27,892 nucleotides of DNA from an uncultured Nitrospirales bacterium (GCA_964390765.1 CAYMLC010000004.1:1-27892), one strand, 5' to 3'; numbered from the stretch's first letter, positions 16,650 through 16,832 are shown. The notes: generated by a model not told the origin, from the letters alone. Program-made: numbers and translations.

Positions 16650-16832
16650 AACAATTGCAGGGCGCGCGCAGGCTGCCGAAATCTGGGGGCGCGCCGCAAC
16701 CCCGAAAATACCGCCTGTTCCACAACCCCGCGCCTATGGCACGCCGGTTGCTCCAAGCGGGCAGCGGAGTCGAATCCGCTACACATACATGGGTCGGTCC
16801 CGCGCCCCCCGGGCATGCGCTGCTTGGATATC
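16650..16832 (-). ncRNA. ssrS: Candidate 6S RNA (ssrS); ends approximate
   Basis: Manual folding of the minus strand gives one long irregular hairpin: GCGCA/TGCGC, TGCC/GGCA, GGGGGCGCG/CGCGCCCCC, CCGACCC/GGGTTGCGG, a central asymmetric bubble, CCGCTTG/CAGGCGG, CAACC/GGTTG, CGTGCC-ATA-GGCGCG. G-U pairs form only on the minus strand. It lies directly upstream of the 5-formyl-THF cyclo-ligase gene (the well-known ssrS-ygfA synteny); -10-like TATCTT at 16844-16839. Confidence 0.6.
16737..16752 (+). promoter_or_regulatory. Sigma-54 (RpoN) -24/-12 promoter facing the flagellar operon
   Basis: TGGCAC-GCCGG-TTGCT matches the TGGCACG-N4-TTGCW consensus; predicted +1 near 16763, about 170 nt upstream of flgF. 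Confidence 0.7.

Follow-up and report, generated by a model that had tools for sequence, protein, structure and literature searches.

What lies between a 5-formyltetrahydrofolate cyclo-ligase gene (ygfA-like, minus strand) and the divergently oriented flagellar gene flgF (plus strand), and which strand it belongs to, is the question that this locus raises. The gap between the two genes measures 303 nt and contains the promoter and the leader studied here. A first-pass annotation had placed in it a consensus sigma-54 promoter aimed at flgF and, running antisense through that promoter, a gene for a 6S-like RNA.

Genomic context of the flgF control region

The window, by which we mean the whole stretch of 27,892 nt that was analysed, corresponds to contig C4 of a metagenome-assembled genome of 3.8 Mb that is 80% complete. 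Its sequence was found in public DNA runs only, from microbial mat metagenomes. Relatives of the same order are mostly labelled Candidatus Hydrogenedentota or Hydrogenedentales, and some carry the label 'uncultured Nitrospirales'. The conflict is seen within a single order among loci L054-L071, whose public labels are Hydrogenedentota or Hydrogenedentales on the one hand and 'uncultured Nitrospirales' or 'Nitrospiraceae' on the other. The Nitrospirales labels within that order are probably wrong, and the source organism is most likely a member of the Hydrogenedentota and not a proteobacterium. For comparison of flgF loci we used the window's own locus and 29 relatives of the same order from 13 families; the phylum sample consisted of 135 species genomes, which are all those in the collection.

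The genes that frame the gap are the following (positions are those of the window):

13623-14696: GAF-GGDEF gene (Pfam)
16045-16632, minus strand: 5-formyltetrahydrofolate cyclo-ligase gene, ygfA-like (Pfam PF01812, 1.8e-29; ATG at 16632)
16923-16938, plus strand: Shine-Dalgarno sequence GGAG (16923-26) and flgF start codon GTG (16936), read from the sequence
16936-17685, plus strand: flgF (Pfam; GTG start)
17704-18495, plus strand: flgG (Pfam)
18502-19635, plus strand: flgA (Pfam)
19639-20274, plus strand: flgH (Pfam)
20282-21382, plus strand: flgI (Pfam)

Pfam also gives a TerB gene and an inositol monophosphatase gene in this neighbourhood. The ygfA-like gene is present in a single copy in the genome, and ygfA divergently adjoins flgF in at least 15 of the 29 relatives; no obvious functional reason for this linkage is apparent. 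The genes flgF-flgG-flgA-flgH-flgI (16936-21382) lie on one strand with short gaps between them and are followed beyond flgI by an EF-hand protein gene, flgN and a flagellin-family gene (Pfam). The EF-hand matches are in a protein of 131 residues (21763-22158, plus strand) encoded just 5' of flgN within the flagellar run. The start of flgF at GTG 16936 is backed by the Flg_bb_rod domain, which begins about 5 residues past it (Pfam), and by the relatives, in which the alignment extends from residue 1 and in-frame stops lie upstream. Elsewhere in the genome, CsrA and FliW are both encoded (contig C543, 2094-2249, minus strand, and contig C88, 2-283, minus strand), and a CsrA-FliW partner switch controlling flagellin is likely in Hydrogenedentota.

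A sigma-54 promoter upstream of flgF

The promoter occupies a single short segment of the gap:

16737-16752, plus strand: sigma-54 (-24/-12) promoter of the flgF operon, exact consensus TGGCACGCCGGTTGCT

This is the sole match in the window to TGGCAC-N5-TTGCW with no mismatch; 0.04 such matches are expected, and 4 of 100 shuffled sequences yielded one. The GG of the -24 element is at 16738-39 and the GC of the -12 element at 16750-51. Sigma-54-dependent transcription is expected to start 11-13 nt after the -12 GC. The +1 is accordingly predicted near 16763, in agreement with the start position proposed in the first-pass annotation. The genome encodes RpoN, on whose presence the earlier promoter call depended (PF04552 on contig C69, 211 bits), together with no fewer than eight clear genes for sigma-54 activators (bEBPs) with strong PF00158 matches. 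In 28 of the 30 loci, the window's included, flgF is preceded at a distance of 178-251 nt by a -24/-12 motif that has two mismatches or fewer, across 13 families; the leader that this distance implies is long and its length conserved. Because the motif is exact, rpoN and bEBP genes are present and the motif is conserved in position at nearly all flgF loci, the assignment of a full-consensus promoter aimed at flgF is supported. Judged by these sequence comparisons, we regard it as a real promoter that is conserved across an uncultured phylum; its kind is an ordinary one.

A slightly looser, still strict, -24/-12 pattern occurs 23 times genome-wide; about 8 would be expected by chance on a rough calculation that uses base composition. 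For 10 of these 23 motifs, in the assembled 80% of the genome, the proteins encoded downstream were scanned against Pfam and none was flagellar. A sigma-54-type motif, TGGCATGGGAATTGCA, is located 31 nt 5' of the start codon of rpoN itself (contig C69, 6137-6152, minus strand; locus L002) and may be autoregulatory. Strict motifs at contig C5 707 (minus strand) and contig C294 4503 (plus strand) precede genes with a prepilin-type GFTLIELMIVVAI N-terminal signal, and these pilin genes are probably sigma-54-dependent.

A site for the activator (enhancer) of sigma-54 polymerase is expected about 80-150 bp from the start, and one element of the window is a candidate for it:

16647-16659, no strand assigned: Box B-like upstream element GGCAACAATTGCA, candidate activator site, 91 nt upstream of the promoter

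In relatives, a two-box module is seen upstream of the flgF promoter. It consists of Box A (GCAGAAAGTTCC), a gap of 5-8 nt and Box B, CGGCA(A/G)GA(A/T)TT(T/G)C (CGGCAAGATTTTC-like), which mostly starts 67-104 nt upstream of the promoter. Both boxes are kept about 95-140 nt upstream of +1 in some 18-20 of 28 relatives (within L025-L053), and the module is present also where ygfA is not nearby (L032, L044, L051). Box B is palindromic in L027 and L029 (CGGCA-N5-TGCCG) and near-palindromic in L038. The spacing of the two boxes is variable, which speaks against a coding role for the module. In the window (16628-16659), GGCAACAATTGCA shares its core with Box B of L044, which belongs to the same family; no Box A can be made out, its place being taken by the start codon of ygfA. 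The palindrome that had been proposed as an enhancer, GCAACAATTGC (GCAA-CAA-TTGC, 16648-16658), lies inside GGCAACAATTGCA: it is present and stands in the place of the relatives' conserved box, and as an enhancer it is a candidate.

The Box A/Box B module would thus fit an activator site; it may be one, or it may be part of the promoter of the divergent gene. The reverse complement of Box A, GGAACTTT, resembles an ECF-type -35 element. At other sigma-54 promoters of four relatives the module was not found. A role as a general flagellar enhancer was considered and rejected, as matches to the pattern in five genomes were no commoner than those of the control; the extra matches fall in coding sequence with no sigma-54 motif nearby.

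Architecture and distribution of the flgF leader

Downstream of the promoter, about 173 nt extend untranslated from the predicted start to the flgF start codon. On the flgF sense strand this leader is structured from the predicted +1 onwards (16763-16863 and a further hairpin at 16871-16886). Its elements are:

16763-16780, plus strand: P1, 5'-terminal hairpin AGCGGA/UCCGCU (inverted repeat; plus-strand minimum-energy fold)
16792-16861, plus strand: P2 domain, outer helix 16792-16805 with 16849-16861 (covariance models, covariation)
16809-16827, plus strand: P2a, within P2
16831-16842, plus strand: P2b, within P2, with the near-invariant UCCGUCGC
16871-16886, plus strand: P3, hairpin CCGUCC-UUCG-GGAUGG (plus-strand fold; no U-tract, not a terminator)

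Twenty-eight leaders folded singly mostly adopt the same architecture of P1, P2, P2a and P2b. In relatives, P1 is a hairpin of about 10 bp with the loop CUCCCAU, and in 23 of 25 sequences it begins at +0 to +4 of the inferred transcription start (16763, +1, in the window). A conserved single-stranded linker, CUUCGUGAGUGGUU, connects it to P2, in which GGCCCnGCG pairs with CGCnGGGCC and is extended by GG/CC across a UU/UU internal loop. P2a is a 10-bp hairpin whose loop again contains UCCCAUU, and P2b is a 3-bp mini-hairpin, UCC-GUCGCG-GGA, with UCCGUCGC nearly invariant. After a conserved GA(A/G)nAUAAC linker, a GC-rich tetraloop hairpin without a U-tract stands at the position of P3, and in many relatives an (A/G)AUAG box is found between P3 and the ribosome-binding site.

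RNAalifold applied to a seed of seven sequences gave 34 base pairs; on the raw 28-sequence MAFFT alignment, in which gaps are misplaced, it returned no structure. A covariance model built from the seven sequences, without the window (model R1), matches the flgF loci of 24 of the 29 relatives as well as the window, always on the flgF strand. In the window the match covers 16755-16863 on the plus strand at 15.4 bits (E=6e-4; local search of 601 nt with filters off), and on the minus strand of the same 601 nt nothing scored above 2.1 bits. The window's score is low because GUCGAA and UGCGC stand in place of the two UCCCAU loops. Its copy keeps P1, P2, P2a, P2b with UCCGUCGC, the linker and P3, and the minimum-energy fold of 16763-16890 (plus strand) yields P1, P2, P2a and P3 with a z-score of only -1.4. 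By these comparisons, we take the window's leader to be a divergent member of the group.

A second covariance model, built from 25 sequences (R2), matches 66 of the 135 phylum genomes, with one match per genome except for one genome that has two. In the window's genome the flgF leader is the only match (42.5 bits). Several genomes without a match also lack flgF, and the models miss the leader of one AT-rich genus (L043, L045, L050), in which it has diverged. The exact core pattern, sought in about 185,000 species genomes, was found only in these lineages, apart from one chance match in a coding region of Flavobacteriales. Rfam, whose families include the flg-Rhizobiales motif and the c-di-GMP riboswitches, gave no match over 16550-17000 (E<=10) and none in ten relatives' leaders (E<=1), and literature searches found no description of a flgF leader of this type. 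It looks like a new RNA motif that, as far as searched, is confined to Hydrogenedentota.

In every context examined (24 relatives and the window) the leader is positioned directly upstream of flgF. Its conserved core of about 110 nt is compact and begins at +1, P3 is stable, and the spacer between core and flgF varies from 41 to 111 nt. These features would also suit a separate, trans-acting small RNA that is made from the sigma-54 promoter and ended or processed after P2 or P3, with flgF served by a downstream promoter of its own. Two studies provide metatranscriptome contigs that match the leader of a relative (G019; L038, 2244-2442) with some 97-98% identity and do not indicate strand or ends. 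Short contigs that cover the leader alone could be taken in favour of such an RNA; these, however, are read-sized and uninformative on RNA ends. One contig runs 29 nt upstream of the predicted +1, an extension that may reflect DNA carry-over, and we let none of these contigs weigh on either side of any reading. P3 lacks a U-tract in the window and in relatives alike, a sigma-70 scan of 16400-17100 found no promoter and hence no second one before flgF, and the element occurs once per genome at a fairly constant distance from flgF. We therefore consider a free-standing small RNA unlikely.

Covariation assigns the structure to the flgF strand

In the model-based alignment of 25 sequences, which gives the strongest covariation figures and, being fitted to the model, leans towards structure, 92.9% of the cells are paired, compared with 75.0 +/- 0.8% for shuffled partners and at most 50% for partners slid by 1-3 columns. 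Changes on both sides are seen in 29 of the 34 pairs in this alignment, a number reached in none of 500 shuffles, and all 10 pairs of P1 show compensatory changes. A structure-blind MAFFT alignment of 19 sequences yielded 83.2% paired cells, compared with 78.8 +/- 0.8% for shuffled and at most 52.5% for slid partners; here compensation is seen in fifteen pairs, a number reached in 3 of 500 shuffles.

A hairpin has much the same appearance on either strand, and it is the counts of G-U and A-C combinations across the relatives that decide between them. In the paired columns, G-U/U-G, which can pair only on the flgF strand, fill 96 cells, and A-C/C-A, which can pair only on the other strand, fill 21. 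The structure therefore belongs to the strand of the flgF mRNA.

Conservation downstream of the promoter could in principle reflect sites in the DNA at which a flagellar activator or repressor protein binds. The blocks GUGAGUGGUUGG and UCCGUCGC, which are conserved as sequence and not as pairs, would agree with this. Compensatory changes, however, are spread over four helices, sequences change while helix lengths and registers stay, and the preponderance of G-U over A-C is not expected from DNA sites, all of which makes protein-binding DNA a very improbable explanation. A leader peptide was also rejected: the conserved blocks fall in different frames across relatives, and relatives have in-frame stops. 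Because the same 'peptide words' appear in different frames on three-frame translation, conservation is at the level of nucleotides and not of coding. Taken together, the comparisons provide good support for the leader as a conserved, covarying, non-coding RNA structure of the sense strand, situated between the transcription start and the start codon.

The proposed antisense 6S-like RNA

6S RNA binds the housekeeping RNA polymerase holoenzyme and templates product RNAs. The first-pass annotation had proposed a minus-strand 6S-like RNA that would begin near 16832, reach to about 16650, overlap the flgF promoter and interfere with it; in such a model the RNA might be co-transcribed with ygfA, on the pattern of E. 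coli ssrS-ygfA. The neighbourhood gives this proposal some appeal: ygfA is directly downstream on the minus strand, its adjacency to flgF is kept in at least half of the relatives as stated above, and linkage of 6S RNA (ssrS) to ygfA is common in Proteobacteria and in some other groups, according to the account of this linkage in PMC9130861, which cites Barrick 2005 and Wehner 2014. Moreover, the segment 16650-16832 is more stable on the minus strand (-88 kcal/mol) than on the plus strand (-75 kcal/mol), and the arm upstream of the promoter is unusually complementary to the promoter and leader in this genome (z -3.1, mononucleotide shuffles).

Against it stands, first, the 6S family itself. 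With the gathering threshold, Rfam 15 matches nothing at all in the window, 6S included, and at E<=10 nothing over 16550-17000 on either strand, nor is there a 6S near flgF in 10 relatives. The genome has a canonical, full-length 6S RNA elsewhere (RF00013, 77.8 bits; contig C28, 3953-4140, plus strand; locus L001, 1501-1688), flanked by a SPASM-domain gene and pilM and not next to ygfA. Second, the minus strand does not fold in the manner expected. The fold of 16633-16850 has -101.6 kcal/mol, compared with -99.3 +/- 4.8 for dinucleotide shuffles (z -0.48), and that of the claimed 183 nt (16650-16832) is likewise no better than shuffles (z -1.27). The minimum-energy structure is multibranched, without a 6S rod and its central bubble. 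The reverse complement of the promoter had been described as one arm of a stem; CAACCGGCGUGCC does pair with GGCGCGGGGUUG in the minus-strand fold, but the fold that contains this stem is no more stable than that of shuffled sequence. The sigma-70 scan described above, which spans the region, offers no promoter for such a transcript.

Third, the part of the proposed RNA upstream of the promoter is not conserved across related genomes. In a comparison of intergenic DNA with 60 relatives only the start of the flgF coding region matches, and the upstream arm has no counterpart; the complementarity of the arm is absent in 27 relatives, and the mean z over 28 loci, the window included, is -0.36. 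The stems that are conserved pair on the flgF sense strand, their G-U pairs being A-C mismatches on the minus strand, where the leader model is all but silent. The leader also accompanies flgF where ygfA is not within 1.5 kb (L032, L044, L051). A perfect 9-nt inverted repeat bridges the promoter in the window (16685-16693 and 16801-16809; GGGGGCGCG and CGCGCCCCC) and drives a long hairpin that is specific to it and that the first-pass annotation had picked out. Because the repeat is not conserved in relatives, it is probably due to chance in DNA of about 68% G+C.

We consequently hold a minus-strand 6S-like RNA to be extremely improbable, and the promoter is not, on this evidence, embedded in such a gene. 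As no antisense 6S-like RNA is supported, the suggestions that it might collide with sigma-54 polymerase, occlude the promoter or mimic a sigma-54 sequence lapse with it. A minus-strand transcript may still pass over the region, for example as a long 5' UTR of ygfA. What had been taken for a 6S-like RNA is, in our reading of the alignments, the flgF leader viewed on the wrong strand and joined by chance complementarity to unconserved upstream sequence. The idea of a 6S gene that overlaps and silences a flagellar sigma-54 promoter does not hold and should not be carried forward.

A model for the flgF leader

Collectively, the locus is best explained by a sigma-54 promoter followed by a sense-strand folded leader of the flgFGAHI message, the '6S-like RNA' being a misread strand; we give this explanation as a whole a probability of roughly 80%. 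The gap between ygfA and flgF would then contain the sequences that control flgFGAHI, the operon for the distal rod and the rings. The activator-dependent promoter at 16737-16752 would start transcription near 16763, and the leader would fold on the sense strand into P1 at the 5' end, the branched P2 domain and P3, after which the ribosome-binding site follows.

Hairpins at the 5' terminus usually shield an mRNA from decay that depends on its 5' end, as in the ompA-type case, and P1 may protect the flgF message in this way. The unpaired nucleotides, namely the two identical loops, the linker and the loop of P2b, are strongly conserved, which argues that a protein or ligand recognises them specifically. 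Those within the branched domain might bind a protein or small ligand and in this way determine how stable the rod and ring message is or how well it is translated. Provided that the RNA is real, we somewhat favour a cis-acting leader that sets the stability and/or translation of the flgFGAHI message. That it has a specific sensor function is possible and, in our estimate, rather doubtful. Equally tentative is a wider proposal, a phylum-wide regulatory RNA whose branched domain binds either a flagellar checkpoint protein or a small molecule and, once sigma-54 has initiated transcription, gates production of the distal rod and of the P and L rings, with the UCCCAU loops and UCCGUCGC as the recognition surface.

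Several specific mechanisms were considered for the leader. No expression platform was recognised in it, and no terminator. Sequestration of the ribosome-binding site was not borne out, as pairing of the last 25 nt before the start codon with the rest of the leader gave z-scores from -1.5 to +1.7 in 28 leaders, with inconsistent partners. A duplex test on the 28 leaders likewise lent no support to the CUCCCAU loops or the CCUUCC strand as anti-Shine-Dalgarno sequences. A pseudoknot in which the UCCC loops pair with GGGA in P2b is conceivable; the loop and P2b columns, on inspection, displayed no covariation for it. Binding of CsrA found no support although CsrA and FliW are encoded, since the sense-strand loops carry UCCCAU and not GGA.

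Comparison with known systems

That sigma-54 governs rod and ring genes is well established for Helicobacter, Campylobacter, Pseudomonas and Caulobacter, where middle-class flagellar promoters depend on RpoN together with FlgS-FlgR in Helicobacter and Campylobacter, FleS-FleR in Pseudomonas and FlbD with its ftr sites in Caulobacter, as outlined for these systems in PMC3930126. The locus described here shares with them a GG-N10-GC promoter before rod and ring genes, an rpoN gene with bEBPs, and a conserved element about 100 nt upstream, at a distance that would suit an activator site. It differs in belonging, by its labels, to uncultured Hydrogenedentota and in having a candidate activator module that did not turn up at other sigma-54 loci of four relatives. 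It also has a long, conserved, folded leader after the promoter, whereas the passages of PMC3930126 on the RpoN flagellar systems mention none. With this promoter, the range of sigma-54-controlled rod and ring genes extends to a phylum that is represented almost exclusively by metagenomes, which is an ordinary result.

With 6S RNA (RF00013) the region has in common that about 180 nt of structured, non-coding sequence lie directly upstream of a 5-formyl-THF cyclo-ligase gene. It differs in having no match to the model, no rod with a bubble, and a conserved structure on the strand opposite to ygfA. A parallel in position is the flg-Rhizobiales RNA motif, a candidate cis-regulatory element of unknown function upstream of flagellar genes (Weinberg et al. 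2010, PMC2864571). Both are structured RNAs upstream of flagellar genes, each confined to a single bacterial lineage. They show no detectable similarity (Rfam), and they differ in phylum and architecture, the flgF leader moreover following a sigma-54 promoter. The flgF leader is a concrete RNA whose conserved loops and junctions are clear; neither Rfam 15 nor the literature searched contains it. To our knowledge, post-transcriptional control of flagellar basal-body genes has been little studied outside a few model bacteria.

The leader of E. coli ompA is an example of a stabilising stem-loop at the 5' terminus of a bacterial mRNA. The flgF leader resembles leaders of the ompA type in that its first hairpin starts within 0-4 nt of the predicted 5' end of the transcript. 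Unlike them, it has a conserved UCCCAU loop in P1 that is repeated in the loop of P2a, even though the window's own copy lacks both loops. The repetition of a conserved loop across relatives suggests specific recognition that goes beyond protection of the transcript end.
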